From an uncultured delta proteobacterium (GTDB lineage Bacteria; Desulfobacterota; Binatia; UBA9968), in contig CAWDPO010000044.1 of NCBI GenBank assembly GCA_963804165.1, positions 1-33,562 on the forward strand: a stretch of 33,562 nucleotides of DNA, in the 5' to 3' direction. Positions 3,874 to 32,648 of the stretch are shown one piece after another (positions within the stretch are counted from its first letter, which is position 1; each line of letters begins with the position of its first letter). The position numbers were made by a program, and so were the translations under genes. Under the pieces are notes generated by a model, which searched no databases, was not told the origin of the DNA, and was given only the letters and a program-made list of their open reading frames with translations.

Positions 3874-3912
3874 CATCGGGCGTTCCCTGATTTTGCGTCC
3901 GTTTTTCCTTAG
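3874..3912 (-). promoter_or_regulatory. Bipartite candidate transcription-factor site upstream of aqpZ
   Basis: Gene-sense CTAAGGAAAAACG-N10-CAGGGAACGCCCGA-TG; recurs upstream of 4-5 other genes in the window. Confidence 0.7.
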
Positions 3913-3982
3913 CCTGAAGAATTCGGAACCGTTTCCGCCGCTGATCGTTGAGGTGCGCCAAAACGCGCGGCACGAGACTCAG

Positions 3983-4807
3983 TCACCCGAGCAGAAACAC
4001 AAGAAAAAACATCTGGAAGACGTTGGCGCCAATTTTCCACGATAAATTGAGCGTTGTAGCGCGATTGACATAATCAACGCGGACTTCGTTGGCCAGTCGC
4101 TCCAGCCTAGCTTTGATCCCGCCCTCCGCCTTTGCAGCCCGCTCCTGCAGCGAAACAATCTTCGCCTCGGCTTCAAGCTTGATTGACGCGGCGCGAGATC
4201 TGGCCCGCTCTTTCGTCGCCTGTAACCTGTCCTTTTTTACCTTCAGCATTACTTGCAGTTGGTCCTTCGATTGATCGCGCGTGTGTAATAGTTGCCCCTC
4301 GATGGTGTGGATTTCGCGGTGCAAAGCGTCCATCTCGTTGGCTATCTGCGCATCCATGACTTCGCGTCGCACACAACGAAATACAATTCCGCCCTGGGAT
4401 TCGAGCAAAGTATCGATGGGGGTCAGCCGTTCCTCGTCGACCTCGGACACAATAGCTGCTGTTCCGGGCAATAGATGGCGCGATACTTCATCGAGAAAGC
4501 CGCCGTCGACACCAACGTTCGCCAGTTCTAGCATCAAGTCAGTGGTGCATTCTGCTGTGGCCTCCTCCGCGGATTGCCACGAGTGACCGAGTAAGCCGAT
4601 TAAACTACGAGTGGCTGTTGCGAGAGCCGGATCTCGAGAATTTTGATCGCGAGCGAAATTCACGATGACAATCCTTTTAAAGCCTTTTACGATCACCGCC
4701 AAAGCGTACACCAGTACCACGCCCTCAGTACTCAGTTCCTTCATCGCGCGCGCAGCGGCCGACGCCTGTCTTTCAGTTTCAAATACCGCGACAAGCATGT
4801 TATCCAT
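3983..4807 (-). CDS. DUF1269-like protein with C-terminal coiled coil
   Basis: MLVAVFETERQA..., GVDGGFLDEVSRHLLPGTAAIVSEVDEE, then a helical tail (EAEAKIVSLQERAAKA); GGAG RBS. Confidence 0.75.
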   Translation of the reverse strand: MDNMLVAVFETERQASAAARAMKELSTEGVVLVYALAVIVKGFKRIVIVNFARDQNSRDPALATATRSLIGLLGHSWQSAEEATAECTTDLMLELANVGVDGGFLDEVSRHLLPGTAAIVSEVDEERLTPIDTLLESQGGIVFRCVRREVMDAQIANEMDALHREIHTIEGQLLHTRDQSKDQLQVMLKVKKDRLQATKERARSRAASIKLEAEAKIVSLQERAAKAEGGIKARLERLANEVRVDYVNRATTLNLSWKIGANVFQMFFLVFLLG

Positions 4808-4902
4808 CGTAAACTCCGTTTTTGCCCGTATTCGCTTTTTATCTTTTCACTTTCACGGTAGCCGCAGATGAGGTCTCTGGACCGTCGTGGCGCTAAACTC
4901 TG

Positions 4903-4919
4903 AGCGAGCTTCGTGCCTT
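4903..4919 (-). promoter_or_regulatory. Candidate sigma-54 (-24/-12) promoter for the DUF1269-like gene
   Basis: Minus strand AAGGCACGAAGCTCGCT: GG-N10-GC with GGCACG, ~95 bp upstream of ATG 4807. The -12 box is TCGC rather than TTGC. Confidence 0.45.
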
Positions 4920-4928
4920 GCCTGTCGA

Positions 4929-5987
4929 TCATTTGGTATAGTTTGGACCTTCGGTTTTCATGCTGGCAACTTGCACCTCGGATCGGAGATTCGGTTTTGA
5001 TAACTCAGGCATTGGTCGATTCCATCCAACGTCGCCTTCGAGCGAGCGGAATTTTTTACGCTTGGCATCGATCATTCCCAGGTAATGGTAGATGCGACCC
5101 TTGCTACGATAGCGCTTCCGCTCTTTGCCTATCAACGTGTAATAGACATACTGCGCATTCGCGCGTACAAGATTAAACCCTATTTGAACATGACTGCGAT
5201 CGCTAATCAGCAATCGACTCCTGCCTTGTTGCCAGTGTCTCTTTATAAAGTATTCGTCGGTCAATCGGTTCCGGTCCACGTGATGGTACACTACGGCGTT
5301 GGGCGCAAGTCCGATGGCGATACCCCCTTGCGTCAACCGGGAAGCGAATTCTACGTCTTCAGATGTTCCCGCAGCACCTGGACCCAAACGTTCGTCGAAT
5401 CCCCCGATGCGATCGAAGGCGCCGCGCCGCACAAAAAAATTAGACCCATTCAAGGATCGGACTTCCTTCAGACTCGAGTCGTGATCGACAATCGGAATCG
5501 TTCGATACCGTTGGTTTAATCTCCGCACCTCGGGATCATCTCCCGCCGGAGATTGAAGTCGAACCGTGCCTTGTCCGGCACCGTATCCACTCGTGTTAAA
5601 AAACGTTTCAATAGACGTTAGCCACGTCTTGTCCACGACGACGTCATCGTCTAAAAATGCCAGGACGTTACCCGTCGATAGGCGCACGGCGTCGTTAATC
5701 GCTGCCGATTTTCCGCCCCGTAGAACCCGCAGAAAACGGATTGTCGTTGGAAAGGACCCGGCGATCCCCGTGAGGTACTCATAAGTATCGTCCCGTGAGT
5801 TATTATCGGCAACAATGATTTCCGGCACGATCCGGTCAATTGCAGTTAGTCGTTGGATGCTGTCCAGGAGGTGAGAAAGTATTTCGCGTCGATCTTTGGT
5901 GGGAATAATGATCGTCGGTTGAAATGGCATAGCCATCCTCGTCTGCGCGTGGCAAGAGACGTTCCGTTTATCGCTATCAACCGCCAA
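4929..5987 (-). CDS. Glycosyltransferase family 2 (GT-A fold); likely start at ATG 5930
   Basis: IIIPTKDR, IIVADNNSRD, FLDDDVVV (DxD), IGGFDERLG, SEDVEF; GAGG lies 6 nt before ATG 5930. Confidence 0.92.
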   Translation of the reverse strand: MAVDSDKRNVSCHAQTRMAMPFQPTIIIPTKDRREILSHLLDSIQRLTAIDRIVPEIIVADNNSRDDTYEYLTGIAGSFPTTIRFLRVLRGGKSAAINDAVRLSTGNVLAFLDDDVVVDKTWLTSIETFFNTSGYGAGQGTVRLQSPAGDDPEVRRLNQRYRTIPIVDHDSSLKEVRSLNGSNFFVRRGAFDRIGGFDERLGPGAAGTSEDVEFASRLTQGGIAIGLAPNAVVYHHVDRNRLTDEYFIKRHWQQGRSRLLISDRSHVQIGFNLVRANAQYVYYTLIGKERKRYRSKGRIYHYLGMIDAKRKKFRSLEGDVGWNRPMPELSKPNLRSEVQVASMKTEGPNYTK

Positions 5988-6307
5988 TTGAAGTGCTGGC
6001 TTTAAATAATCCGAGCCTATGATTGATGCTGTACTCTCGCGAGGCTAACCTGAACGGCGCTCGGTGGCTATCAGGCACTCGCTGATTTGCGACCTCCGAA
6101 AACCTGAGAAGGGGTAGCGCGATTTGCGCGCGGTAGACAGAGCTAGAGGAATGCCTATGGATAACGCCCGAGAACCCGCCAGCCGAAAAATCCAATATTC
6201 TAGTAAAAGTGACGCCACCCGATTGATATAAGGTACAGTCGGGTGCTTGGCGGGTTGGGGTCAGGGCAATAGTGTCGCCGGTGTCGTCATAGACGATAGC
6301 AAGGTAA

Positions 6308-11076: not shown

Positions 11077-11110
11077 GCGTGTGCGCCGCAGCCTATTGCG
11101 CCGCACACGC
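11077..11110. terminator. Hairpin downstream of the OmpA gene
   Basis: GCGTGTGCG/CGCACACGC 9-bp stem extended by CGCA/TGCG; no clear U-tract. Confidence 0.3.
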
Positions 11111-11181
11111 TCGTTCAATCTCAAGCCTTTATCTAGTTGCTTTCACAGCGACGGAGGAAGCTTTGCGCGCTCTCCTTCCGT

Positions 11182-11892: not shown

Positions 11893-11991
11893 TTTTCCCC
11901 CTCGATGTTTTAATTTCGGAGAAAATTCCGACCCTCGCCGATTCTACACAACGAAACTGTGCAAACGTAAAATAGTCTTAGGATCAGTGCA

Positions 11992-12030
11992 ATCAGGAAA
12001 ACCCCTAGTCTAACCGACGTTTTTCCTTAG
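11992..12030 (-). promoter_or_regulatory. Bipartite candidate TF site upstream of the OmpA gene
   Basis: CTAAGGAAAAACG (identical 13-mer to the aqpZ site)-N10-TAGGGGTTTTCCTG. The second box reads CAGGAAAACCCCTA on the opposite strand. Confidence 0.7.
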
Positions 12031-12154
12031 GTTCCCAAAACGTTTTTTGAGCACCCGCCGTATCGGGGCTTATCCACAGCGATTGCGTCACTTTTGTCGG
12101 AGACTCTCAAGATTTACGAAAGACTTCGCGCATGTACTTAAATTTCATCGTCGT

Positions 12155-12871
12155 CTAAAGCGAAGTCAAACCTTCACGGATGCAATATTTTGTCAGGCCG
12201 GCAGTGGTTCGAATACCGAGTTTATCCATGATCTGTTTACGATGGGTCTCGATCGTTTTCACACTCACTTCGAGGGTGGCGGCGATCTCTTTTGTCGACT
12301 TGCCGTCCGCGATCAGTTGCAGGACTTGCAGTTCCCTCCTGGTGAGCCGTTGCACATCGGCAACGTTCTTCATCGACAAAGCTGTCGCTTCGTTTTTTAA
12401 CGCAGCAGCGGTGGTGATCGCCGGACTCAAATACATTCCACCTTTAGATACCGATCCCAACGCAGCGGCGAGATCCTCCAATGCGGAATCTTTGAGCAGA
12501 TAGGCGGAAGCTCCTGCCTGCAACACTTGAAGAATGTAATTTCGCGTCGCATGCATAGAAAGCACGACGACCTCGATGTCGGGCTGCTGGGATTTGATCT
12601 GCCGGGTAGCATCAATTCCGTTGAGATTGGGTAATACGATATCCATGACAACAATGTCGGGATGAAACTCCCTGGCCTTTTTCACCGCCTCGTACCCATC
12701 ACTTGCTTCCGCAACACATTCGTAGCCGAGCTTTTCTTCAAGCAACGACCGGAGGCCCTCGCGCATCATTCTATGGTCTTCGGCGATCAGAACACGTCGA
12801 TGGGTGGAACTGTTTTTTTGTGATCGGTCCATGCCACGCGCGGCTAAGGCTACAGTTTGTCGGTTCGGCAT
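12155..12871 (-). CDS. NarL/FixJ (LuxR-HTH) family response regulator, RR2
   Basis: IAEDH, VMDIVLP (phospho-Asp), YLLKD, LTRRELQVLQLIADGKSTKEIA...SVKTIETHRKQIMDKL. Confidence 0.95.
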   Translation of the reverse strand: MPNRQTVALAARGMDRSQKNSSTHRRVLIAEDHRMMREGLRSLLEEKLGYECVAEASDGYEAVKKAREFHPDIVVMDIVLPNLNGIDATRQIKSQQPDIEVVVLSMHATRNYILQVLQAGASAYLLKDSALEDLAAALGSVSKGGMYLSPAITTAAALKNEATALSMKNVADVQRLTRRELQVLQLIADGKSTKEIAATLEVSVKTIETHRKQIMDKLGIRTTAGLTKYCIREGLTSL

Positions 12872-12928
12872 TTTGGCGATGTTGACGCTCCCATGTGACA
12901 GTGTAATTCACGACGGCCCAGAAAATCC

Positions 12929-12968
12929 CATCGGGGTTTCCCTGAATTCTTAACTCGAAATCTCTTAG
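12929..12968 (-). promoter_or_regulatory. Bipartite candidate TF site upstream of RR2
   Basis: CTAAGAGATTTCG-N11-CAGGGAAACCCCGA-TG. Confidence 0.7.
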
Positions 12969-13002
12969 ATTGAAGGAATAGACGCTGTGTTACTTGCACA
13001 GG

Positions 13003-13650
13003 TTAATGGACTGACGTGATTCCTTCGCGGATCGCAAATTTAGTTAGATAAGCGATATTGGGCAGGTTCAATCGATCCATAATTTGCCGGCGGTGGGTCT
13101 CAACCGTTTTAACGCTCACGTAAAGGCTGGCAGCTATTTCTCTCGTGGATTTTCCCTCGGCAACCAGTTGGAGCACTTCGCGTTCTCGGCAGGATATTTT
13201 AGGGAGTTCACATCGAGACTCTGACAACCACTGCGCAACCGCTCTTCCAACCACGACGTCGGCAACATTTGACCCAATGTATTTTCGCCCCGCCAAAACC
13301 ACTTCTAACGCGCTGCTAATCTCCTCAATCCCCGAGTCTTTGAGCAAATATCCAGAAGCTCCAACCGCGAATGACTCCATGATGAAACGGGTTTCATTGT
13401 GCATGGACACAACCAACACCTTAACATCAGGAAATTCGCGATGGATTTGCCGGGTAAATGCGATTCCGTCGCAGCCTGGCATGCCAATGTCACTTATGAC
13501 AGCCGCCGGTTTGAGTTTTGCGACCAGCCTGATCGCAGCACGACCGTCGTCTGCTTCGCCGACAATTTGGAAATTCTTCTTTTCGAGAACGGACCTGAGG
13601 CCCGCTCTAAATAGGCGGTGATCATCTACGATTATGATTCTCGGCTCCAT
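13003..13650 (-). CDS. NarL/FixJ (LuxR-HTH) family response regulator, RR1
   Basis: IVDDH, ISDIGMP, YLLKD, REREVLQLVAEGKSTREIA...SVKTVETHRRQIMDRL; starts 4 nt after the kinase stop. Confidence 0.95.
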   Translation of the reverse strand: MEPRIIIVDDHRLFRAGLRSVLEKKNFQIVGEADDGRAAIRLVAKLKPAAVISDIGMPGCDGIAFTRQIHREFPDVKVLVVSMHNETRFIMESFAVGASGYLLKDSGIEEISSALEVVLAGRKYIGSNVADVVVGRAVAQWLSESRCELPKISCREREVLQLVAEGKSTREIAASLYVSVKTVETHRRQIMDRLNLPNIAYLTKFAIREGITSVH

Positions 13651-13654
13651 AATC

Positions 13655-14488: not shown

Positions 14489-14529
14489 AAGTCTCCTTGA
14501 CGCACGTTACACAATCGCTCAGAAAAGGC

Positions 14530-14545
14530 GCAATTAGGGTGCCAA
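14530..14545 (-). promoter_or_regulatory. Sigma-54 (-24/-12) promoter of the kinase-RR1 operon
   Basis: TTGGCACCCTAATTGC is an exact TGGCAC-N5-TTGC match, ending ~41 bp before the kinase ATG. Confidence 0.85.
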
Positions 14546-14721
14546 AAGACAAGGAAACGGAGCCGACGATCTAAGATAAGGCTCGTCGGCCCAAGAGTGG
14601 CTCCGCTGGTTCAGCGTCGAAGGTTTATTTTCAAGAAGGCGAGAAATGCAAATGCGGCGACACCGAGACCACTAATCAGTAAAGAGAATTTGGCCGGTAA
14701 ACCTCTCAATAGCTGCTACAA

Positions 14722-14734: not shown

Positions 14735-14835
14735 TTTAGTATAGAAACCAATGCGAGTAAATCATTGTTAACTGTTTTTGACATGGTCAAACAGGGCACG
14801 GTTAACCACTAAGATTGCTAATCAGACACCGACCT

Positions 14836-14873
14836 ACTCACTATTTCGTGGTTTTACCACTAAATTTCGTGGT
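14836..14873. promoter_or_regulatory. Candidate upstream activating sequence (tandem EBP sites)
   Basis: Near-palindrome ACCACTAAATTTCGTGGT (14856-14873); ATTTCGTGGTTTTA repeated at 21-bp spacing; ACCACTAA also at 14668 and 14805. Confidence 0.6.
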
Positions 14874-14874
14874 T

Positions 14875-17800
14875 TTAGCCAAGAACTCCAGAATTTATCG
14901 GCCTGTGGATTTCGAGTTTCTTCATGCGCGAGCGTAGCGTATTGGGATGCAGCCCTAAAATCATCGCCGCCCCCTTCGGCCCCTCAATCCGCCAATTCGT
15001 TTGGTGCAAGACCTTAAGGATGCGCGTCCGTTCGAATTCCTCCAGCGTTAATGGCAGATCCCCACCGTCATTCTGGCTTTTGCTTTTTTCTGGAGTTACT
15101 CCAGCAGGTGATGCATGTGAAAAAATCTCGGCCCCTTGAGCTCGATTCCACCCTTCTGGCAGTTGGAGGGTTGGACCTGTGGAGGTGACGGTCGCTCTGC
15201 CGATCACATTCTCCAACTCGCGCACGTTGCCGGGCCAACTATAGCCCTGCAACGCTTCGATCACTTCACTCGGTATTTTCCCAAAACTCTTCCCCAACCG
15301 CCGCCCCGCTTCCTGTAAAAATACCTCTGCCAATAACCCAATGTCTTCTCTGCGCTCCCTCAGCGGCGGAATCTCGATCGGATAAACATTTAACCGATAG
15401 TATAAATCGGTGCGAAATCTCCCCCGTTGCGCCGCTTCGCTCAGATTGCGGTTGGTCGCCGCGATCACCCGCACATCGACCTTGACCGTCTTGCCGCTCC
15501 CCACCCGCTCAAACTCCCCCTCCTGCAATACCCTCAATAACTTCGACTGCAGCCTTAACGGCAGTTCGCCCACCTCGTCGAGAAATATCGTCCCCCCATC
15601 GGCTAACTCAAACCGTCCCACCTGCTTGGAGACCGCCCCCGTAAACGCTCCCCGCTCATGACCAAACAACTCACTCTCGATCAGCTCCCCAGGCAGTGCC
15701 GAACAGTTCACCTTCACCAACGGCCGCTCCCGCCGCCCGCTCTTCTCATGTAACAATCGCGCCACCAATTCTTTTCCCGTCCCGGTCTCGCCCAACACCA
15801 ATACCGTCATGTCCGTCCGCGCCACCCGCTCCACTTGCTCTAAAACCTTCCCGATCCCTTGACTCTCCCCGAGGATCTCCCCGTACCGATGAACACCCGA
15901 TACCTCAGAGCGCAAATACACGTTCTCCGCTTCCAACCGCTCCTTTAACCGCTTCACCTCCGCTAGTGCCTCCTTCAACTCTTCCTCCGCTCGCTTGCGG
16001 TCCGTGATGTCATGAGTGACCGCAAGTTGCGCGACGATACTTCCGTTCTTCGCCCGCAGCGGCGCAGCGTGCGACTCCATCCAGCGTCGCTTGCCCTTGA
16101 GTCCCACGATTTCAAACTGGGCGACTCCTCTTTCTCCCTGACAAACCCGGTCATGCAGTTTCTTATAGGTAGCGCGCCACTCCGGCGCGACGATCGCGAG
16201 AACGGACTGTCCGACGACATCGTCTAAAGAATCGGCCTGAATCATGGCTAATCCGGCCGGATTCATATCCAACAAGCGAGTATCTGGTGCCACCAGTTTC
16301 ACACATTCCGGTTCTGATTCAAAAATTGTGCGCCGCAGACTTTCGCTATCGCGTAGCGCCTCCTCGACTTGCTTGCGCTCGGTGATGTCGATAGATAACC
16401 CGAGCAATACCGAGACGTGACCATCGGACCCAAAAATCGCGTGGCCTCGGCCGGCGATCCAGCGAATCGAACCGTCAGGCCGGACGATTCGATATTCACT
16501 ATCGGAAATTTCCGTGGTCTGAAGATCTCGCTCAGCTCGCAAGCGAATCTTCTCGCGATCTTCCGGATGGACCATGGCCAAAAAATCTGCCTGATTCGAT
16601 TTCAGGCTTCCCGGAGTCACACCCAATATGCGCTCTAGTCCCTCAGACCGTGTAACCTTGCGAGTGTCAACTTCCAATTCCCAATACCCCATCCGAGCAC
16701 TTTCCATTGCAAGCTTCAGTCGCGCCTCGCTTTCACGAAGGGCCCGCTCCGCCCGCTTGCGCTCAACGAACAGTCCCATTTGGCTGCCGACGTTAGACAT
16801 CATTTGGAGCAGCGCATCGTCGGGCTTACGAATCTCGCGGCTAAAAAAACCCATGACACCGAAGGCTTCGTCGCCTCGATGGATGGGGAACGCGCAAGCG
16901 CTATGAAGACCTGCCTCGGCGGCCAACGACTTGCGCGAAAAATTGTTATCAGCCGTTACGTCGGGAATCCACGCGGGTTGACAGGTTTGCCAAACGCGGC
17001 CCGGCGAACCGACACCGGGGGCAAAGGTAACTTGCCGACTCGCGGACCAGAATTCGGCTAAGTCTTGCGATGGCAAGTGCCAGCTTGCGCGAGATGTCAG
17101 GATGTTTGTTCCCTGGTCTACTTGCCAGATTTCGCCGTATTGCCAATCAAGACAGGAACAGATCGATTGCAAGATTTTCGGCGCAGCCTCGGCCATCGAA
17201 GCAGACTCCGAAAGTATCCGGGTGATGTCGTATTGTGCATTTAGCCGGGACTCCGCTTGCTTGCGCTCGCTTATATCCACGGCAGAAGCCATATACCCGA
17301 GGAAGATGCCGTCGGGCCCGAAGCGCGGCATACCGTTATTGAGAATCCATCGATATTCGCCGTCAGCTCTGCGCAACCGATATTCCATTGAAAAGTCTTG
17401 CCGTCTGTCAAAGGATTCCATGTACGTCCGGAGAAAACGATCAAGATCTTCCGCGTGGACTCCTTCGGACCAGCCGTTGCCAAGCTCCTGGTCAAGCGTT
17501 CGTCCCGTGAAGTCGAGCCAACCTTTGCTAAAAAACGAGCAAAGTTTGTCCGTGCTGGATACCCAGATCATTATGGGCGCCGCGTCCGCAAGATTTCGAA
17601 ACCGATTTTCGGTCTCGCCGAGGATCTGTATTTTCTCAAACCGTTCTGCAAAAAGAGACGCCAGCAGAAGAAGCGGGAAATAAAGAACAATCAAGAACAT
17701 CTGTAGCCAAAAAATATTATCGGCCGGCAATTGGCTAACGAAGGGACCATTGCCAGCAAGTGCATTCATCATCGTCATGAACGCAAACGCTAGAAATGAA

Positions 17801-19530
17801 AGCGAGAGGCCAACCAGTCCCAAGCGAACCGCTGCCCACAACAAGAACGGCAGGGGAATATAGAGCAGCGCAGGGAAGTTGCCCAAGGCGTGTGATTTTA
17901 GACCGAAAACTCCAATACCACTGCCGAGTAACCCCGCTAGTATGACGATCATCTCCATCCACTGTTTGAGGGAAGCTCTCTTGATGATTTCCGCTCCGCG
18001 GGTCGAACCGAGTACGATGCCGGGAGTTAGGATTAAGAAGGGCAACAAGTTAGATAAAAATGCATGACGCCATTCCAACCAAATGTTGTCGCTTCCATAG
18101 CCGACGGAAATTCGGATTAGCGGCCAGCCCCAAGCCATCAAAGCGGTGGCTGCGGTGATTTGGCCTACGAAGATAATGCTACGGCGCAAATTTCCAAGAT
18201 CGCCATTGATTGCTCCGAATTGGCGTACGGCTAAGGCCGTCACTACCACAAGAGCGCAATCGTAGAGGTAGTACAGGTCAAGCTCCAATCCGGGAGTGCC
18301 GAACTGTCTCTGGGCGACGACGTGAGCAACTGCACCAGCCAGCAAGAACACCGACCAGTAGCGTGGTGGATTAAGCAACAGCGCAGCTAGCAGCACTGCA
18401 TTGGCAGGCCAAAGGGCGGAGAAATACGACGCTGGATACACGAACGCCAGATCCACCAAAGAGCCGAAATAGTAGGCGGCCCACATCGCGATCGCAGTCA
18501 GTCCGAGACTAAGGTACAGGGATAGTCGTTTACCATTGAAGGCCGCGTTCCACGGCTTGATCTCACGTACGACTTCCGTTTTGTACTTTTGCTCCTCGAC
18601 AAACGCGGCGAGAAACATTATCGGGAGAACAATTGCCATGAGAAAGAGCTGAAGAGATAAAACATTGCTTTGCGGGAATTGACTGAGAAAAGGACCATTC
18701 CCCTGGAAAGCACCACAAATTGATGTCATCACAACGAGCAAAAATGCCGTGCTCGCTCCCAGTTGTCCAAATCTCACCGCGGCCCACAGAAAAAACGGCA
18801 GCGGCAAATAAATCAATACAGTCATCGCTCCTGGGCCGACGGTTGCCCAACAGAATACCGTCAAACCAGTCGTCAACAGCCCAAATGCCAAAATAGAAGC
18901 CTCGGCACCCCGCCACCAGGAAATGCTGCGCAAGAAAGCCGCACCGCGATCAAACCATAGGATAACGAGGGGAGGAATCATGAGGGCGGCCAGAACATTC
19001 GATGGAAAGCGCATCAGCCAAGTTTGCCAATAAGTATTTCCCTTCCAGCCGACGAGCGAGACGAATGACGCATCGATAAAGGAGCCCAGAAACGGCGCGA
19101 GAATCGCCACAGCGAGGTAGATAGCGAGGTTTTTTAGACCGGCAAAATCTGCTTGACGTTCGACGAAACGGCGCACACAAATTGCGCCGATCAATGCTTC
19201 CGCAGCGTTGCTAATAAACCAAAACAGAATCAGCAAAATTGGCACGCCGCTCTGTAACTGGACGGCTACGTGGACCGGGAAAACGCCGAGAAGCACTACC
19301 CACCAACTTCGAATCGGCATGAGCAGCAGCGCGGTGAAGACAATCGCATTCGGAGGCCAGAGTACGGAGACTGCGCTGTCCGGAAACGTAAGGGTAAACC
19401 CGATCAGCGAGCCGACATAGTATGCCCCACCAACGAGCAGACCGACGATGGACAACCGTATTGGAGAATTTGCGCGACGGTCCGGCTCGCCCGTCCGAAT
19501 AATCTGGTTTGTCGAAGTGGGCTCAATCAT
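14875..19530 (-). CDS. Sigma-54 EBP2: MASE1-MASE1-PAS-GAF-PAS-PAS-AAA+-HTH (1551 aa)
   Basis: Two MASE1-like repeats (VSVLWPPNAI / FSALWPANAV; YLPLPFFLWAAVRFG / YIPLPFLLWAAVRLG), GAF (GSPGRVWQTCQPAWIPDV...FPI), DITxRK motifs, GAFTGA, Walker A/B, HTH; GGAGG RBS. Confidence 0.95.
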   Translation of the reverse strand: MIEPTSTNQIIRTGEPDRRANSPIRLSIVGLLVGGAYYVGSLIGFTLTFPDSAVSVLWPPNAIVFTALLLMPIRSWWVVLLGVFPVHVAVQLQSGVPILLILFWFISNAAEALIGAICVRRFVERQADFAGLKNLAIYLAVAILAPFLGSFIDASFVSLVGWKGNTYWQTWLMRFPSNVLAALMIPPLVILWFDRGAAFLRSISWWRGAEASILAFGLLTTGLTVFCWATVGPGAMTVLIYLPLPFFLWAAVRFGQLGASTAFLLVVMTSICGAFQGNGPFLSQFPQSNVLSLQLFLMAIVLPIMFLAAFVEEQKYKTEVVREIKPWNAAFNGKRLSLYLSLGLTAIAMWAAYYFGSLVDLAFVYPASYFSALWPANAVLLAALLLNPPRYWSVFLLAGAVAHVVAQRQFGTPGLELDLYYLYDCALVVVTALAVRQFGAINGDLGNLRRSIIFVGQITAATALMAWGWPLIRISVGYGSDNIWLEWRHAFLSNLLPFLILTPGIVLGSTRGAEIIKRASLKQWMEMIVILAGLLGSGIGVFGLKSHALGNFPALLYIPLPFLLWAAVRLGLVGLSLSFLAFAFMTMMNALAGNGPFVSQLPADNIFWLQMFLIVLYFPLLLLASLFAERFEKIQILGETENRFRNLADAAPIMIWVSSTDKLCSFFSKGWLDFTGRTLDQELGNGWSEGVHAEDLDRFLRTYMESFDRRQDFSMEYRLRRADGEYRWILNNGMPRFGPDGIFLGYMASAVDISERKQAESRLNAQYDITRILSESASMAEAAPKILQSICSCLDWQYGEIWQVDQGTNILTSRASWHLPSQDLAEFWSASRQVTFAPGVGSPGRVWQTCQPAWIPDVTADNNFSRKSLAAEAGLHSACAFPIHRGDEAFGVMGFFSREIRKPDDALLQMMSNVGSQMGLFVERKRAERALRESEARLKLAMESARMGYWELEVDTRKVTRSEGLERILGVTPGSLKSNQADFLAMVHPEDREKIRLRAERDLQTTEISDSEYRIVRPDGSIRWIAGRGHAIFGSDGHVSVLLGLSIDITERKQVEEALRDSESLRRTIFESEPECVKLVAPDTRLLDMNPAGLAMIQADSLDDVVGQSVLAIVAPEWRATYKKLHDRVCQGERGVAQFEIVGLKGKRRWMESHAAPLRAKNGSIVAQLAVTHDITDRKRAEEELKEALAEVKRLKERLEAENVYLRSEVSGVHRYGEILGESQGIGKVLEQVERVARTDMTVLVLGETGTGKELVARLLHEKSGRRERPLVKVNCSALPGELIESELFGHERGAFTGAVSKQVGRFELADGGTIFLDEVGELPLRLQSKLLRVLQEGEFERVGSGKTVKVDVRVIAATNRNLSEAAQRGRFRTDLYYRLNVYPIEIPPLRERREDIGLLAEVFLQEAGRRLGKSFGKIPSEVIEALQGYSWPGNVRELENVIGRATVTSTGPTLQLPEGWNRAQGAEIFSHASPAGVTPEKSKSQNDGGDLPLTLEEFERTRILKVLHQTNWRIEGPKGAAMILGLHPNTLRSRMKKLEIHRPINSGVLG
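15146..16011. repeat. Direct repeat copy B (866 bp, AAA+ cassette)
   Basis: Near-identical to 6624-7489. Confidence 0.97.
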
Positions 19531-20145: not shown

Positions 20146-20904
20146 TTAGGGAGTTTTTGCCCGCACTGCCTCGGTTGCCTTCGGCCAGAAGAGCTCGGCC
20201 CGGATGCCCCAGGTGCTTTCGAACACGTCGGGCAAGAGCAGCATGGCCATGTCGCAGCGCACGCCGTCGCATTGCCCGGCGATTCTCTCCAACTCGCCAA
20301 TCATCGCTTGCTGCAATTGCGGGTTGCCATAATTGAGCTGCAGCGTGTCGGGCCAGCCTTCGAAGTACGGGTCACGGCCATAGGCGAGCACCAGTGGACC
20401 ATTTGTGCTTTGTGCGCGGCAATAATTTTTCGGTGCGCGTTGCAAATCCGCCTCGCTGCCATGGACAAAAAAATCAGGATGCTCGTCGATCCACGGATGA
20501 TCCGGGGCCATGTGGTTGGGCACGAAGTCGAGCATCAGCTTCAATCCGCGTTGTTGAAACCGCTGTCGCAGACCTGCGAGCGACGCGTCGCCGCCCAGAT
20601 CGCGATGGACAGTGTAGTTTTGGATGGCGAACCCCGAGCCAGCGATATCCTTCTCTCGCAAGTCCGGCAGCGTCTCTTGAAATTCCTTGCGCCATTCCGG
20701 ATTCGCTCGCGAGATCGCCTGCCCAGCCGGACCGGTCTGCCAAACACTCAGGAACCAGACCCAGTCAAAACCCATCTCTGCGATCCGGTCCAGCTCGGCA
20801 TTGGGAATGTCATCGAGCGTCGCTTGCCGCCCGAGATTCTCTGACAATTCTGTGAGCCAGACACGGGCGTTGATTTGATAGAGCGAGCAATAGTGAGTAG
20901 GCAT
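20146..20904 (-). pseudogene. C-terminally truncated GH13 alpha-amylase-family protein
   Basis: LMLDFVPNH (region I) and DGVRCDMAM (nucleophile region II) are present. The ORF stops before the acid/base Glu (region III) and region IV Asp, and I see no continuation downstream. Confidence 0.8.
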
Positions 20905-21428
20905 GGTCGTCTGCCTTTCATTCCTTGATAGCAGTCTTTCACCGCCATTTCGTTTCCAGATCTCACGCCTGGAATTTCTCCCAGAACGCCTCGTCGATAT
21001 TCTTCAACGTTGAACCTCGCCGTACTCCCCGATAGCGGGCCAGCGCTGCGGCGAACACTCGCAGAGTTTGTAGACAAAAGTAATGCGGGCGACTCCCCGC
21101 TCTTAAGGGCTAACTTCGAATCTCTTGCAAAGGTCGCTGCAAAAATTCATGCGCAGTTTTACTTCTTGGTTATTATGTATCCCCGGCTGTCGAGAAAATT
21201 GACAGTCTGAATCACCTGATTGGTCGGCTCATAACCGCGGTAGACACAACAGTTTGAATGATGGAGCTCTTCCACTTGAGATGGCCGTTGGTCTTGAGAT
21301 TATCGGCCGAGTTCAAGATGGCCAGAACCAGCTGCATCAGTTCAGTATCAATGTCCTCCTTCCCTGCCACGTTCTTGATGTCTTGCGCGATCTGAGAATA
21401 ACTTCCATCGCTCGGCCGGTCGGCGCGA

Positions 21429-21824
21429 TCACTTCACTGCGTACTGCTTGGCTTTGCGGAAATATAGGTACGCGCCGACGCTCACGAAATTGATGACTAT
21501 CCCCATAAGGTTCCATAGGATCACCGGCCGTGAAGCAATCAACAAGCCGTAGTAGACCCAGGCTATTTGAAAGACACCGATGATGCCCGCCATCCTCGGG
21601 TTCATCCCCGCGCTTGACCGCCGCTTGAGCATTGCGACTAAGTCTGGCACGGCGGCAAAGGTCGTTCCAAATCCCGCCACAAAGCCAAGGATCTCGGACC
21701 GTTGAAACCTGGGGATGAACAGGCTCGACGTGTCGCGTATAACCAGGTCCTCACAGCCATAAAGTGTAAGAAGACTCAGCAAAAGAACACCGAGCGTCAT
21801 TTTATTGGAGCAATTCATATTCAC
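21429..21824 (-). CDS. SemiSWEET/PQ-loop family transporter with an N-terminal lipoprotein-like extension
   Basis: GFVAGFGTTFAAVPDL...RRSSAGMN, AWVYYGLLI, PVILWN; three TM helices; AAGGAAG RBS. Confidence 0.85.
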   Translation of the reverse strand: MNMNCSNKMTLGVLLLSLLTLYGCEDLVIRDTSSLFIPRFQRSEILGFVAGFGTTFAAVPDLVAMLKRRSSAGMNPRMAGIIGVFQIAWVYYGLLIASRPVILWNLMGIVINFVSVGAYLYFRKAKQYAVK

Positions 21825-21972
21825 ATCGACAACTTCCTTTATAGGGGCTATTTAATTACCTTGTGCTTCCAGGCTTCGCCGGACATGAAATTGCGGAGAC
21901 GAGTATAATAAGCACGAATGTCGATCGGCAATACGAACAGGATTTAATGGATCGCGCATTGCGCCCGCTTCT

Positions 21973-24712
21973 TCACTTCCCGGCCGGCTTTTCTCCGCCT
22001 ACCTGCTCCCGTGTCAGTCGGCTGACAATTTGTTCGCGTTCCAACTCGAGATCTTTGGCCTCCATGCGGCCGAACAGATCGAGAAGGCGCGCGACCAAAC
22101 CAGTCCAGCCCGTCTGGTGGCTGGCGCCGAGCCCCGCCCCGTTGTCTCCATGAAAGTATTCGTAAAAAAGGATCAGGTCGCGCCAGTGCGGATCGTTCTG
22201 GAACTTTGCGGTCCCGCCGTAAACTGGCCGCCGTCCCTTGGTCGTCGCGCAGGAAAGTGCTCGCCAGCCGGCGCGAGATTTCCTGCGCAACTTCGAACAA
22301 CGTCATGTACCGCCCCGAACCGGTGGGACACTGAACTTTGAATTCATCGCCGTAGAAATTGTACAGGTTTAGCAGCGCCCGAATGATCAGCGCATTGACC
22401 GGCATCCAGACCGGTCCGCGCCAATTGGAGTTGCCGCCGAACATGCCGGTATTCGATTCACCGGGCAGGTACTGGACCTTGTATTCCTGATTCCCCGACA
22501 TGAAACACAAACGGATGTTCCAGATGATACCGCGACAGAGAGCGAATGCCGTGGGGTCCGAGAAACTCGTTCTCGTCGAGCAGATAGGCGAGCACGCGCT
22601 CCAACTTCTGCTTGTTGAGGATCGACAGCAGACGACGTCCCTTATAGCCGATAAAACCCTCACGGGTCGGGGCCACATGGGAAACCACCTCGGGATGGCG
22701 TTTGCGGAACAGCGCGATCATCTCGAACAGTCTCGGGTAACGCTCTGCGGCATCGGCCGCGAACACTGTACTCGCGCACAACGGCAGCAGTCCCACTAAT
22801 GACCGCACTTTCAAACGCATCGCCTGGCCGTCGGGCAAACGCAGCAGATCATAGAAAAACCCGTCCTGTTCGTCCCACATCTCGTCGTGATGCTCGCCGA
22901 TGCGGTCCATCGCGTAGGCGATCCACAGGAAATGCTGGATGAACTTGAAGGCGATCTCCTCATACATCTTCTGATCGTATTCGGTCAGAATGAGGGCCAT
23001 CTCCAGCATGCACTGGCAGTAAAACGCCATCCAGGCCGTTCCGTCCGCCTGCTCCAGAGAGCCCCCCGTGGGGAGTTGGGCGCTGCGGTCGAAGACGCCA
23101 ATGTTGTCGAGACCCAGAAAGCCGCCGGCGAACACGTTGCGGCCCGAAGGATCCTTGCGGTTCACCCACCAGTTGAAGTTCAGCATCAATCCCTGAAACG
23201 AGCGTTCCAGAAACCGCAGGTCCGCCCGGCCGAGGTTCTGTTCCATCTTGTAGAGGAAAATTGTGGCCCAGGCGTGCACCGGCGGATTGACATCGCTGAA
23301 GTTCCACTCGTAGGCGGGAATTTGCCCGTTGGGATGGAAATAGAGGCCGCGCAGCATCAGCAGCAGTTGATCCTTGGCAAAATCGAAGTCGACCAGCGAC
23401 AGGGAAATCGTGTGGAACGCCAAATCCCAGGCCGCATACCACGGATACTCCCACTTGTCCGGCATCGAGATCACGTCGGCATTGAGCATGTGGAACCATT
23501 CCGTATTGCGCACGTCATTGCCGCCAGATTGCATGAGCGGATGACTCCTGTGCTCCACCAGCCATTGATCCAGATCGAAGTAGTAGTACTGCTTGCTCCA
23601 GAGCATTCCCGCCAGTGCCTGGCGATGCACCCGGCGTTCATCTTCGTTTAGGGAGTTCGGCGAAATCCGGTCGTAGAATTCGTCAGCGTCGGCGATCCGG
23701 CTTTTGAATGTCCTCTCGAAACCGCCGAAGGCATCTTCTGTCTTGGCGGCCGCCAGGCGCAGGCGAACGGCCTTGCTTCCGCCGCCGGGCACGTCAAGGA
23801 CATAGTGCGCCGCGGCCTTGGTCCCAATCTTGGCGGGATTCACCGCCTGGCGCTGTCCCGAGATGAGGTACTCGTGGAACGCGTCCTTGACATAAGGAGA
23901 CGCATTGGGCTGGCCCCAAAGACGGGCGCATTGCTTTCATTCTCGGTGAAGAGCAACTCCGGAGCGCCCTCGCAATATAGCCAGTAGTCGCCAAGCTCAG
24001 AGTGTGTCGCTTGAATTGCATCGGAGCCCACTTCGCGCAGCGACGGCTTCGACTGATCCTCGCCCCAAGACCAGGTGTTGCGGAACCAGAGTGTCGGCAA
24101 GACATGAAGGCGAGCCGCTTCAGGTCCACGATTGTGCACCGTAATGCGAACGAGGAGGTCTTCGGGACTTTCCTTCGCGTACTCCACGAACACGTCAAAG
24201 TACCGGTCGTCGTCGAAGATGCCGGTGTCGAGCAGCTCGTACTCAAACTCTTCCCGCGATCGTCTCCGGTTGGTCTCGATCAGGTCGCGGTAAGGATACT
24301 CCCGCTGCGGGTACTTGTAGAGATACTTCATGTACGAATGCGTGGGAGTGCTGTCGAGGTAGAAGTAGTACTCCTTGACGTCCTCGCCGTGGTTCGCCTC
24401 GTTGTTGGTGAGCCCGAACAGGCGCTCTTTGAGGATCGGGTCGCGCTCGTTCCACAGCGCCAGCGCAAAGCATAGCCGTTGCTTGTCGTCGCAGATTCCT
24501 CCGAGCCCGTCCTCGCCCCACCGATAGGCTCGTGAGCGCGCCTGGTCATGGGTGAAGTAATTCCATGCATCGCCATTTTCGCTGTAGTCTTCACGCACGG
24601 TGCCCCACTGGCGTTCACTGAGATACGGACCCCACTTCTTCCACGGGATGCCCGCCTCGCGCGCCTCGTTCAACCGTTTTTGCTCAGTGACATCGACAAT
24701 CACAGGGTCCAT
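21973..24712 (-). pseudogene. GH63/MGH1-like glucosidase (~912 aa) split by three frameshifts
   Basis: [83 protein letters not shown] lie in successive frames. Shifts at ~23925 (-1), 22493-22496 (+1) and 22235-22237 (+1); span 2740 = 3n+1. Could be intact if the indels are sequencing errors. Confidence 0.88.
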
Positions 24713-24835
24713 TGCTTGCCTCCGCCGCGTTTAAGCCGGTAAAAAAGTTATTGCTCTTGAATAAGCCGCACCGCCGTACCAAATCACGCCTTGAATGAAT
24801 CATCCTGCAGATTGTTGGAGCCGCGGGTCTTCCGC

Positions 24836-24875
24836 CATCGGGGATTCCCTGATTTCGCGTTTCGAAGTTCCCTAG
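24836..24875 (-). promoter_or_regulatory. Bipartite candidate TF site upstream of the glucosidase
   Basis: CTAGGGAACTTCG-N11-CAGGGAATCCCCGA-TG. Confidence 0.7.
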
Positions 24876-24991
24876 CGGGAGTTATTACTTATCCACAGCA
24901 AGAAAGCGAGAGCACGGAAGCAGCTCAAATAAAAAGGTCACGGCATCCGGCGAGCTTGGTCCCGGTGTTTGCCGACCCAGTCGGCGACTCA

Positions 24992-27370: not shown

Positions 27371-27507
27371 GATGATTTCAGATGATTGGGATGTTCGGCT
27401 TGCCGTTCTTGGCCATTTGCTTCCGCTCGACGCGAATCTGAAAGTTAGCGTGCAGCGCTTGCCTTTGCAGTGGTGGCTCACGCTCAGTCAAAGTTCTCGG
27501 CCCGCGC

Positions 27508-27701
27508 TTAGAACTGCGGCGGTTCGCTGTTCCAACTGGCCGGGTCCGCACCCATCTTTTCGCCGAGGTCCGCGAGATTGTTCATGGTCTCTTTGATGAA
27601 CGTTCCAGGAACCGGCGGGAACCAATCACCCGGATTCGACACGATACGCACCTCCGCCTCGGCCTTCCGCTTGAACCTCGCTATATCGGCCATCGCGAAG
27701 A
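27508..27701 (-). pseudogene. Tandem 3' fragment of a patatin-like gene
   Basis: 27521-27701 aligns to 27819-27999 (offset 298): FAMADIARFKRKAEAEVRIVS...KETMNNLADLGEKMGADPASW. Confidence 0.85.
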
Positions 27702-27763
27702 ACATTCGACCTCCCATCAGTAGCGGGCCCGTGGTTTTTCTCTCCCTCGGCCACGTGGCATCG

Positions 27764-29038: not shown

Positions 29039-29424
29039 CCACGAGAAAGATTAAAGATGTTCTTGTTCGCATAGGCTGGCCTATAACGCCCAATGGGCTT
29101 GAGCGAGCGCGAGTATTGCAACGATCGTCATAGAGATGGTTCTACTTGACACTGGAGATTCCATGTGACGGAAAACTGGAACACCGTTCCCTCGGCTAAC
29201 TACTTTAAACGCATATAGCTCAAACTTTGTGAAGAGCGCAAATCAATTTAGGCGACACGAGGATTGTAGATCCTCTGCCCAGGGAAACTCAGAATCACGG
29301 ATGTGCACTTGATTTCGAGTCTCGTGACGATTAGCGAGACCGACAACCAATAGCAAAAGCCAACAGAAAATCCGCGGCTCTCTCCCCTCCTCTCTGTGCA
29401 TGAATGCGCGTGTTTTTCGATACA

Positions 29425-30254
29425 ACACGAGGATATGATGGAGATGCTGAACGTCGGGTTGCTCGAGGCCATCGTCGTCGATGACTGGAAGGCCAAGATG
29501 TGGGTTCAGTTGCTCCCGAACCTCAGGGTCAACGAGAAGGCCGTCTTGCGCTCCGGGGGCGTGATCGGTTGGGGAATCCGTAAGGGCAGTCCCAAGCTTG
29601 ATGCCGAGCTGAATGATTTCTACGTCAACTTCATGAAGAACCAGGGCACCCTCAACTGGCGCAAACAGGAATACTTTAAGCGGATCAAGCAAATCACTAA
29701 CTCCACGGGCTCCGACGAGGCGAAGCGCTTCCTTGAGACCCTGGAGTTCTTCAAGAAGTACGGCGAGAAATACGGCTTCGATCCGCTGATGCTCGCTGCC
29801 CAGGTTACCAGGAATCACCTCAACCAGAATGCTAAGAGCTACGTCGGCGCCATCGGCGTCATGCAGTTGATGCCCGCCACCGCCGCCGAGATGAAAGTCG
29901 GCGACATCAAGGTCACCGAAGCCAACATCCATGCAGGGACGAAGTACATGGACCAGTTGATGACCAGATATTTTCCAGACGCGAAGTTTAGTGAAGCAAA
30001 TCGCTCTCTTTTTGCTCTTGCTGCCTATAACGCCGGTCCGGGGCGAATCGCCAGCATGCGCAAGGAAGCCGCCAAGGGTAATCTCGATCCGGACAAGTGG
30101 TTCAACAACGTCGAGATCGTCACGGCGGAAAAGGTCGGCATTGAAACGACCACCTACGTGTGCAATATCTTCAAGTACTACACCGCCTAAACTGATGCTG
30201 GAACTCGAAGAAACGCAAAAAAAGGCGCGTGAGGTGGTTAAGCAGCGGAGCTGA
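29425..30254 (+). pseudogene. N-terminally truncated, frameshifted MltF-like lytic transglycosylase
   Basis: End of a binding-protein domain (EDMMEMLNVG...IVVDDW...WGIRKGSPKL), then GAIGVMQLMPATA and AAYNAGP. Catalytic YQES is out of frame at 29806-29817; a 2-nt deletion at ~30188 creates a premature TAA. Confidence 0.88.
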
Positions 30255-30480
30255 AAATCCTGAGCAGAAGTCTGCCTGTTTTTCGGTTTGTCGTCGGTGT
30301 GATCCTCGAGTGATTTTGTGGTCGCTTATCCTAGTGGCTTGCATGACTTCCCGTGCCGGGCGATTCCCCGAGGCAACGCGGCGAATGGTACCGATCTCAA
30401 CAGTGATGCAGCGCGCCAGTTCATTTCGACGTCCAAGGAAAGGTCAACACCTCTCAGCATGCATATCTCTTAGAGATGTC

Positions 30481-30519
30481 CTAAGGAAATTCGTAATAGA
30501 AATCAGGGCGACCCTGATT
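30481..30519 (+). promoter_or_regulatory. Bipartite candidate TF site upstream of the PLD gene
   Basis: CTAAGGAAATTCG-N10-CAGGGCGACCCTGA; also forms the palindrome AATCAGGG-CGA-CCCTGATT. Confidence 0.7.
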
Positions 30520-30626
30520 AGCAACCTCAAGGCGGCATTTCATAATAAAATTCTAAGGGACTGACAGACGATAGACGATCGCGGTGCCAATCTCTTGCAC
30601 CGTCCCTTAACCAGGAGAGGTGAAAC

Positions 30627-32176
30627 ATGAGGACAAGATACTTGTACAAAAGCTTGTTGCCGATTTTCGCCATCGCCTGCCTTGTGAGCGCGTGCGCTCC
30701 CGCGATCAACTGGGATTACCCGCGCAAGCCGTCAAATACCTTCGCACAGCCGGAGACCACCACCGTCGGCGCACTGTTTCAGGAAGCGGCGGACAAACAT
30801 CCGGGAGTATCCGGCTTCTCTATTATTCGGCAAGGCGGTCAGGCGTTTATGGCTCGGCTGGCGATGGCCGACTTAGCCGAAAAGACGCTCGATGGGCAGT
30901 ACTACATCTGGGATGGCGACACCACCGGCCTGATTTTGGCCGACCATCTGCTGCGTGCCGCGGACCGCGGCGTCCGTGTGCGCTTGTTGATCGACGATCA
31001 TTATATGTCGGAGAGTAGAGACAACAACATTGCGGCGCTCGACGCCCATCCCAACATTGAGATCCGTTTCTTCAACCCGGTCAGGAACCGGCGTTGGCGC
31101 ATGATGAGCTTCTTGGCCGAGTTTGGCCGCGTCAACCACCGGATGCACAACAAGCTGTTCGTTATGGACAACGCCGTGGGAATTGTCGGCGGACGCAACA
31201 TCGCGGATGTCTATTTTGGCGTGAGTACAGCCCATAACTATCGCGATCTCGATGTTATGAACGCCGGTCCGATCGTCAACGAGATATCGGCGAGCTTCGA
31301 TATGTTCTGGAACAGCGAGTGGGCACTACCCGTGGCTGCGGTCGTGGAAAAGCGCGCCACCGAACAGGATTTGGAGGACTGGAGGAAACGGCTAAAGGAA
31401 AAACTCGCCGCCACCGCCTATCCCTATCCCATCGACGAACACCTTGCTGGCCTCCGCGACCGCTTGGTCCAGATCCGGGACAATTTCATCTGGGCCCCGG
31501 GCAAAGTTTTCGTCGAGCAGCCCTCCAGGGTCGACGCCAATGCGGACAACGTCATCGCGTCGGCTCTCCGCGCAACGGGCAAGTGAGGTAGAGCGAGAAG
31601 TGTTGATCGAGTCGCCGTATTTCGTGCTGGGCGACGCGACTATCGAGAGGGTGCGACAACTCACGGCGCGAGGTGTCAAGGTGCGTGTGTTAACCAATTC
31701 CGCGGCCTCTCATGACGTGCTCCCGGCGCTTGCGGGCTATGTCTATTCGCGCAAGAAACTGCTCAATGCCGGCGTCGAGCTGTACGAGCTGCGTCCGGAT
31801 ACCAATATGCATCGGGACTGGTCGGTGTTGGCGGGCAAATCGCACGCCGCGTTGCATGCCAAGTCTCTTGTGTTCGATCGCAAGTCCGTGTTCATCGGCA
31901 GTTTCAATCTCGATCCCCGATCGACAGGCCCTCAACACCGAGATCGGCGTGATGATCGACAGTCCGGAGATTGCCGGGCAGGTGGGAGAGTTGATGGATG
32001 AAGGGGTCGCCCCCGGCAGCGCCTTTCACGTCACGCTCGACAAGAACGATAATCTGGTGTGGACCAATGAGTATCACGACTCAAAAGTCGAGTACTACAC
32101 AGACCCCGACACAAACTTCTTTTATCGGTTTATCGTCGGCGTCATCGGCATGCTGCCGATTGAGGACCAGCTATAG
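30627..32176 (+). pseudogene. Phospholipase D family lipoprotein (ClsC/YmdC-like, ~515 aa) split by two +1 frameshifts
   Basis: Lipobox VSA-C; HKD motifs RMHNKLFVMD and LHAKSLVFD; GGRNIAD, GSFNLDPRS. Shifts at ~31570 and ~31927; span 1550 = 3n+2; AGGAGAGG RBS. Confidence 0.88.
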
Positions 32177-32190
32177 AGGAGGCTGAGGCG

Positions 32191-32298
32191 GTGGCTGGAA
32201 TCTTTACCAAAGAGACGATGAACAATCTTGCCGGACCTCAGCGAAAAAACGAGACGCGGACCCGGCGAGCTGGAGCACCGAACCGGCCGCCGTTTTGA
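32191..32298 (+). pseudogene. Third, inverted and degenerate copy of the patatin 3' end
   Basis: AAAGAGACGATGAACAATCTTGC...CGCGGACCCGGCGAGCTGGAGCA matches the KETMNNLA...ADPASWS coding sequence, with several indels. Confidence 0.8.
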
Positions 32299-32610
32299 GC
32301 AATTACTATAGCCAACTCGTTGCCGATGCTGGAGCCGCTGAGTTTGTTGCGCCCCCGCGGAAAAAATTGCCAGAGAAAATTTTCCGACCAGATACCAACC
32401 ACAGCGGCACGCGCAGCATTTGTGCCCACGGGAGAGTCGACTCGATGCGATTTACGAACATCTCCGGCGCGACGCTTCTGCTTTAGAACGTCTCGGCATG
32501 AGGACTGCGTATTGTGGTTGATTCAAATCGTCGTGGCATTTGACGCGTTATAAAAATGGCCGTTTATACGATTTAGGGCTAGTACATCTACTAAAGCTCT
32601 TATGTCTGCA

Positions 32611-32648
32611 CTCAGGTATTTAGAACCAAAATTGGGTAAAACCCGATG
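32611..32648 (+). promoter_or_regulatory. Degenerate bipartite TF site upstream of the 193-aa gene
   Basis: CTCAGGTATTTAG-N9-TGGGTAAAACCCGA-TG. Confidence 0.45.

Follow-up and report, generated by a model that had tools for sequence, protein, structure and literature searches.

A bipartite DNA element in Binatia and other bacterial phyla: candidate activator-dependent promoters for a NarL/LuxR-family response regulator

The question raised by this locus is which protein reads a two-box DNA element that recurs ahead of several genes, and what the element does there. The DNA belongs to an uncultured member of the Binatia. The window, by which we mean the whole stretch analysed, is the entire contig C44 (33,562 bp) of a 46-contig, 7.5-Mb metagenome-assembled genome (MAG), G000, which is 81% complete with 5% contamination. 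A first-pass annotation of this DNA had proposed that one or both of two response regulators encoded in it, RR1 and RR2, bind the element and control a local regulon. We consider it likely that the element copies are activator-dependent promoters of the sigma-70 type with two built-in sites for a NarL/LuxR-family regulator, the putative binders being RR1 and/or RR2. The evidence is computational throughout. We know of no cultured member of the Binatia, which are a widespread soil lineage. Our literature searches, which did not cover subscription journals, found no paper on gene regulation in Binatia and none on the RR1/RR2 regulator subfamily or its operator. In what follows L numbers are loci, G numbers are genomes of the genus and C numbers are contigs.

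The six bipartite sites reported in the window are present with the sequences, coordinates and gene-sense orientation first given for them (Table 1). They flip with the strand of the gene, box 2 always being the nearer to it and box 1 the farther. Even the site described at first as weaker (32611-32648) was recovered by matrix A, a two-block position matrix trained on 29 sites from other genomes only and used to scan G000 for matches above 16 bits. A further weak site, new to this analysis, precedes a GT2 glycosyltransferase gene. The distance between the CAGGG C and the start codon is 73-161 nt in the seven window sites. Two window matches, against none in 100 shuffles, were found for an exact sub-pattern, CTAAGGAAANNCG-N9-12-CAGGG. 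Two details of the annotation were revised. The 'glucosidase' site is real, but the gene adjoining it is a 290-aa open reading frame (ORF) with no assigned function that heads a GH63 / SWEET / amylase-fragment gene row; the GH63-like glucosidase comes next with a 4-nt overlap. The 'lone second boxes' at 29280 and 10338 are noise, with box 2 scores of 3.9 and -1.4 bits; 620 places in G000 reach 8 bits for box 2.

The 76 aligned sites give a consensus of CTAAGGnATTTCG, some 10 variable bases with AAA at their end, and ATCAGGGAnTCCCCGATTG. The 18 bp of box 2 form a palindrome, ATCAGGG / CCCTGAT around a centre of 3-4 bases, which can also be written ATCAGGG-N3/4-CCCKAT. Its half-sites are ATCAGGG or AATAGGG. 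Box 1 (CTAAGGnATTTCG) resembles a degenerate left half of box 2 (T-A/C-AGG-G-ATTTC). Counted from the CAGGG C, the start of box 1 is at -24 for 21 of 29 sites, at -23 for six, at -22 for one and at -25 for one, so the distance from AGG to AGG is 22 bp, or about two helical turns. A 12-mer, GCTGTGGATAAG, found ahead of both the OmpA and the 290-aa ORF site was rejected as a further component. It stands at differing distances from box 1, and by a rough estimate a repeated 12-mer of this kind is expected by chance in 33 kb.

The element is confined to a small part of the genome. A loose regular expression run over the whole 7.5 Mb gave five matches, four in the window and one on contig C22. Matrix A gave 20 matches above 16 bits. 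The best 15 of these 20 (20.2-42.2 bits) fall on C44 (seven), C22 (seven) and C21 (one), which together make up about 80 kb, and the remaining five (16.4-18.1 bits) are scattered over G000. Matrix B, trained on the first-reported window sites only, has no match at or above 22 bits on either strand of the other 7.42 Mb of G000. Profile R1, a sequence-only profile of the site that was run on 31 genomes of the genus, has 13 matches in G000, all on C44, C22 and C21. R1 replaced a strict exact pattern, which across the genus gave 10 matches in 6/31 genomes against four for a reversed control and caught only two G000 sites.

C22 and C21 hold paralogous or decayed window genes. These include fragments of enhancer-binding proteins, OmpA, amylase-family, GH63 and CusF-like genes, an OprB porin gene and an IS110 transposase gene (L021/L022; L109). 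Two of the seven C22 sites use one common palindromic box 2. At 15690-15727 C22 has a site that matches a regulator-gene promoter of L093 exactly but continues into a different sequence, and so resembles a rearranged copy. At C22:19430-19471 one perfect palindromic box 2 is flanked on both sides by box-1-like elements, with a DUF2092 gene on one side. This arrangement is conserved in a relative (L026 2519-2531) and may be a divergent double promoter with a common primary site.

Two checks had been suggested together with the first-pass annotation, a genome-wide motif scan and a comparison of orthologous promoters. In the first, as described above, the top matches are restricted to three small contigs and are not spread over the background. 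In the second, the motif is retained in related Binatia and the flanks have diverged. Retained sites precede the orthologues of RR2 (L024, L025, L026, L027, L028 and L063), of the OmpA gene (L024, L025 and L063), of the CusF-like gene (L026, 34 bits) and of the GT2 gene (L026, a near-identical site). A MIP gene follows a site also in L063. A near-identical copy of the aqpZ site occurs at L026 19139; it is not tied to a MIP gene, because the ORF picked after it encodes a 106-aa PG_binding_1 protein. Other Binatia have the site ahead of FGE-sulfatase-type and sulfatase genes (L029 10977, L031 6998; L104 = G013:C38 6739), so the content of the regulon differs between species. The sites are clustered in the better assembled relatives, where 10/10 in G003 are on one contig, at positions from 182 to 335 kb, and 10/12 in G044 are within 65 kb.

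The presence of the element follows that of the regulator family. Profile R1 has matches in 13/31 genomes of the genus. Nine genomes have an RR2-family gene that reaches E 1e-60, and all nine carry the motif (G000 13 matches, G003 10, G005 8, G006 2, G014 1, G017 5, G018 10, G019 1 and G044 12); without G005, which is an unpublished genome, 9/9 becomes 8/8. Among the 22 genomes without such a gene, 18 are motif-free. One of the four that carry the motif, G016, has a single marginal R1 match; the other three are considered below.

The same association is seen far outside the genus. We fetched 80 loci (1.13 Mb) from public genomes as relatives of RR2, and matrix B found 69 sites in 49 of them. 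Outside Binatia the site nearly always lies tens of bases past the regulator gene, on the same strand and ahead of the next gene. The gene after the site encodes an ammonium transporter (amt) in 28 loci, a glutamate dehydrogenase in three, the cognate HisKA_3 kinase in two and a MerR-type protein in one. The 28 loci with a site between the regulator and transporter genes come from many phyla. The taxa named in the records of these loci include Zixibacteria, Krumholzibacteriota, Ignavibacteriota, Gemmatimonadota, Eisenbacteria, Riflebacteria, Edwardsbacteria, Anaerolineales and Ca. Acidoferrum. In 12 of 13 other-phyla loci examined closely a HisKA_3 kinase gene stands ahead of the regulator gene; these cassette kinases can be as short as 257-306 aa and have no recognisable sensor domain. 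An ORF of 241-257 aa follows the transporter gene in 10 of the same 13 loci (L064, L078, L083, L084, L086, L087, L096, L097, L099 and L102), and four of the 10 match Pfam Gcw_chp. In five other-phyla genomes, with 150 candidates scored per genome, the profile found one strong site each, at the amt promoter, and two marginal matches. A global nitrogen regulon in these phyla was rejected on this ground. With one strong site per genome the system looks dedicated in other phyla and expanded only in Binatia.

The proposed binder can be narrowed from the neighbourhood of the sites. In the loci examined, which comprise the Binatia island and the amt cassettes, the only DNA-binding protein beside the site is a response regulator with a receiver and a GerE (LuxR-type helix-turn-helix) domain. 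RR1 and RR2 both have this NarL/FixJ architecture (Pfam Response_reg 1.1e-30 and GerE 1.6e-18 for RR2; 1.4e-28 and 1.1e-16 for RR1) and are 43-45% identical. The catalytic residues of the receiver, with its phospho-acceptor Asp, acidic pocket, Ser/Thr and Lys, are conserved: D32, D77, S105 and K127 (RR2 numbering) are invariant in a 10-sequence alignment, and D31 is nearly so. A recognition helix of the sequence SVKT[IV]E[TS]HR[KR]QIMD[KR]L recurs with little or no change in RR1, in RR2 and in eight other-phyla homologues. An RR2 clade (11 rows), an RR1 clade (13) and a third small clade make up a 27-row group in a quick maximum-likelihood tree, where this group is sister to a 49-row multi-phylum clade. 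Three other NarL-type regulators of G000 have long branches and fall far outside both. The confinement and conservation of the element, its co-occurrence with the regulator and the common recognition helix all support the earlier proposal that RR1 and/or RR2 would bind it and control a local regulon.

RR1 and RR2 fall outside all named orthologous groups, because their NCBIfam scores are below the curated cut-offs for the NarL, NarP, GacA/UvrY, RcsB, MctR, EvgA, UhpA and FixJ equivalogs (score/cut-off: MctR 193/300, GacA 154/280, NarL 145/250, RcsB 80/235). The nearest solved relative is VraR (7ve6, E 3.7e-34); DevR (3c3w) is found at E 3.7e-23. Like NarL/NarP, GacA/UvrY, RcsB and MctR, they combine a receiver with GerE, have the acidic pocket and lysine, and probably bind to inverted repeats as dimers. 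The annotation had likened the element to RcsB boxes (TAAG...CCTA). This comparison is good at the level of the family only, the RcsB score being so far below its cut-off that orthology to RcsB is not upheld.

The effect of a bound regulator is suggested by the geometry downstream of the boxes. TAnnnT starts at +37, counted from box 2, in 30/80 sites and within +35..+39 in 46/80, while eleven equal-width control windows hold it in 1-9 of 80. In the window, TAGATT at +37..+42 of the aqpZ site (3847-3852) is read as a -10 element, and CATAAT occupies the same place at the PLD site (30541-30546). T-T comes after box 2, at +14/+15, in 42/80 sites and TTG in 20/80, which is the -35 position, 17 bp ahead of the -10. 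If the hexamer is taken as -12 to -7, the predicted centres are about -43 for box 2 and about -65 for box 1. The element would then be a promoter with regulator sites, not an isolated operator. The term operator used at first holds for the regulator site and misses this predicted promoter geometry, with a -35 TTG and a -10 at fixed distance. Box 2 would be the primary palindromic site for a regulator dimer, touching a weak -35 (TTG), and box 1 would take up a second regulator unit by cooperative binding.

The palindrome might alternatively be a transcribed RNA hairpin, acting as a leader or attenuator and not as a DNA site. A 7-bp stem is possible and 75.2% of the cells pair. However, shuffles reach 76.2%, and the covariation score (0.082) is below that of shuffles (0.087), 339/500 of which score at least as high. 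The half-sites ATCAGGG and AATAGGG vary without compensation, the element is upstream of the predicted -10, and the window has no Rfam 15 match at gathering score. We find an RNA hairpin scarcely credible.

The same regulators could act at the same sites by repression. A regulator on the -35 would block RNA polymerase until a signal removes it. Box 2 does abut or overlap the -35, and with a full TTG in 20/80 sites some promoters might work unaided. However, most sites have a weak -35 or none. The site on the regulator's own gene fits positive feedback, and those nitrogen regulators that are known to us act on amt promoters as activators. The phased second site about 22 bp upstream is a hallmark of activation of the DevR type, described below. 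Repression is unlikely in our judgement, and activation by RR1 and/or RR2 is preferred.

Several points weigh against this preference. Overlap with the -35 is as compatible with repression as with activation. The placement at -43 and -65 rests on a predicted -10, and 34/80 sites have no TAnnnT within +35..+39. RR1 and RR2 are not distinguishable as binder, and the tree that groups them is a quick version of a careful search that is unfinished. Three genomes, G013 (four matches), G042 (three) and G043 (three), have the motif although no RR2-family gene reaches E 1e-45 in them. In G013 and G042, which are MAGs 93% and 84% complete, the contigs with the sites measure 5.6-6.8 kb; one site is at the extreme end of its contig, and one has beside it a regulator with 34% identity to RR2. 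The G043 matches are not accounted for. The contrast between 9/9 and 4/22 genomes is overstated, because related genomes are not independent. Sites elsewhere in G000 may have been missed, given the completeness and contamination of the MAG.

The closest known system by tandem-box layout is DevR/DosR of Mycobacterium tuberculosis. DevR promoters carry two or more boxes in tandem, of which the primary is conserved and the secondary weak; at tgs1 they lie at -42.5 and -63.5 (PMC3177182). Box binding is cooperative there, and activation depends on helical phase (PMC3177182). The element described here has the same spacing of about two helical turns and the same pairing of a conserved box 2 with a weak box 1. 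The two systems also have in common the NarL/LuxR family of the response regulator, a palindromic primary box of 18 bp whose core is G/C, the regulator's own operon as a target and target genes of a stress type. Cooperative binding and activation are proposed here by likeness to DevR. The systems differ in the sequence of the box, which here is that of box 2 above, and neither RR1 nor RR2 is an orthologue of DevR. The sites seen here all have the primary box in the promoter-proximal position, and the kinase is a short HisKA_3 protein expressed from a sigma-54 promoter. The DevR-style layout, with a strong proximal and a weak phased upstream box, thus appears to extend past the mycobacteria.

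A second parallel is LuxR and the lux box. LuxR has the same helix-turn-helix family, and its palindrome of about 20 bp near -42.5 replaces or overlaps the -35 in activation of class II type. Unlike the proteins considered here, LuxR is an autoinducer sensor and not a phosphorylated response regulator, and it uses a single box. The lead that DVU3220 of Desulfovibrio is a NarL-type regulator of amt was dropped; we take this protein to be of the NtrC type. One report has it as the likely nitrogen regulator with the amt operon as target, in passages that leave its family unstated (PMC3333781). GnfM of Geobacter was set aside as a NarL-type nitrogen regulator, since it is shown to be a sigma-54 enhancer-binding protein (PMC2995071).

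The upstream part of the circuit is suggested by the arrangement of the genes. The kinase gene next to RR1 has a sigma-54-type promoter, TGGCACCCTAATTGCG, and the same element is found in the same place in 7/9 related loci with both regulators. The matrix A scan of G000 found no bipartite site before the kinase-RR1 operon; RR2 has one. RR2 is 58 nt downstream of the stop-proximal site of RR1. The enhancer-binding protein encoded directly upstream of the kinase would, from its position, be the activator of the kinase-RR1 promoter. The simplest reading of these positions is an order of two steps, from the sigma-54 activator to the kinase and RR1, and from there to RR2 and the island genes. The enhancer-binding protein and the sigma-54 promoter would switch on the kinase-RR1 operon, presumably upon a signal, and phosphorylated RR1 would then switch on RR2 and about 13-15 promoters. 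RR2 probably reinforces its own expression. Candidate targets are the genes for the aquaporin, for OmpA-like, CusF-like and DUF2092 envelope proteins, for the glycosyltransferase and for the PLD-like enzyme, as well as the GH63/SWEET sugar gene row, all of them on C44, C22 and C21.

The sigma-54 genes of the window raise the question of another binder. The boxes might be an upstream activating sequence for an enhancer-binding protein of the window, or an alternative sigma factor might read them as -35 and -10. The window encodes two large sigma-54 activators, and TGGCAY lies within the spacer of a few other-phyla sites. However, the 10 GG-N10-GC matches in six upstream regions are all unlike the sigma-54 consensus, the sigma-54 candidate of aqpZ is wrongly spaced, and TGGCACN5TTGCW with up to two mismatches has 20 matches in the window against 15.4 expected. 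A symmetric palindromic box 2 is unlike a sigma element, and the -10 at fixed distance is of the sigma-70 type. The 13 other-phyla cassettes hold the regulator and, with one exception, the kinase, and no enhancer-binding protein was found among the ORFs scanned in them. We therefore regard another binder as very improbable and retain RR1 and/or RR2. The motif itself was also rejected as a sigma-54 promoter: its spacing is wrong and GG/GC is not conserved. No good GG-N10-GC (-24/-12) element is found at or downstream of the motif, and the only such element near these genes is that of the kinase.

At 14843-14877 (together with 14802-14812) the 14-nt sequence ATTTCGTGGTTTTA occurs twice without mismatch as a direct repeat, at a distance of 21 nt. 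These copies of AAAACCACGAAAT, which a palindrome, ACCAC-N8-GTGGT, overlaps, stand some 300 nt ahead of the kinase sigma-54 promoter. A similar pair, AAAACCACGAAA, lies upstream of the same sigma-54 promoter in L024. The repeats at 14843-14877 could be the enhancer of the neighbouring MASE1 activator. Soil metatranscriptome contigs from four runs (X15-X18) match portions of the kinase, RR1 and RR2 genes with 90-99% likeness; such contigs cannot show starts, strands or levels, and were counted neither for nor against.

It is an even question, in our estimate, whether all these loci belong to an undescribed ancient kinase-regulator-operator module present in at least 10 phylum-level groups, judged by record titles. 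Such a module would serve one promoter only, as a dedicated switch for the gene of an ammonium transporter or of a glutamate dehydrogenase, with a short HisKA_3 kinase in which no sensor domain is visible. In Binatia, duplication of the regulator would have been accompanied by a change of the kinase-regulator operon to sigma-54 control and by the dispersal of the operator over 10-15 promoters within one genomic island of envelope, water-channel and sugar genes. If this is true, the growth of a single-target system into an island-wide regulon can be traced. For Binatia the analysis provides a concrete and testable circuit with an operator defined to the base, proposed to run from the sigma-54 activator to the kinase and RR1, to RR2 and to about 15 promoters. 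The assignment of a DNA motif to a whole NarL-type subfamily would make targets predictable in hundreds of MAGs. It also points to an unstudied control of ammonium uptake in Zixibacteria, Krumholzibacteriota, Ignavibacteriota, Gemmatimonadota and others.

Table 1. Coordinates of the element copies, regulators and associated features in the window (bits are matrix A scores, E values are from profile R1).
Feature	Position	Strand	Remarks
RR2-upstream site	12928..12970	-	box 1 12956-12968, box 2 12928-12946; 42.2 bits, top in genome; E 2.5e-6
OmpA-family gene site	11988..12032	-	gene directly after RR2; 30.3 bits
Aquaporin (MIP) gene site, aqpZ	3872..3913	-	35.1 bits
GT2 glycosyltransferase gene site	6066..6110	-	seventh site, weaker, new; CAGCG C at 6084, minus strand; 22.4 bits; E 9.3e-4
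290-aa ORF site	24833..24878	-	36.7 bits; E 1.2e-8
PLD-like gene site	30479..30519	+	box 2 a perfect palindrome, one base shorter; 31.5 bits; E 1.1e-5
CusF-like 193-aa gene site	32609..32650	+	25.3 bits; TG-n-TAAGAT extended -10
RR2, receiver + GerE response regulator	12155..12871	-	proposed binder and target
RR1, paralogous receiver + GerE regulator	13003..13650	-	proposed binder, expressed with kinase
HisKA_3 histidine kinase, 277 aa	13655..14488	-	no recognisable sensor domain; Pfam
Sigma-54-type promoter	14529..14544	-	41 nt before kinase start codon; 1 mismatch to TGGCACN5TTGCW
Enhancer-binding protein, MASE1-PAS-GAF-PAS-sigma-54 AAA+-HTH_8	14875..19530	-	directly upstream of kinase; Pfam

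Assembly errors or decay are possible on C44, C22 and C21, because several genes there are split. In the window this applies to 20146-23843, where two overlapping ORFs (21944-22678 and 22458-23843) each encode part of a GH63/MGH1-like hydrolase and an alpha-amylase-family gene is present as a 252-aa fragment; a frameshift, decay or an assembly error are each possible. A second good sigma-54-type element, TGGCAATCAAATTGCT, is found at 2745-2760 (+). It has no obvious plus-strand gene after it, and the next gene is aqpZ on the opposite strand.

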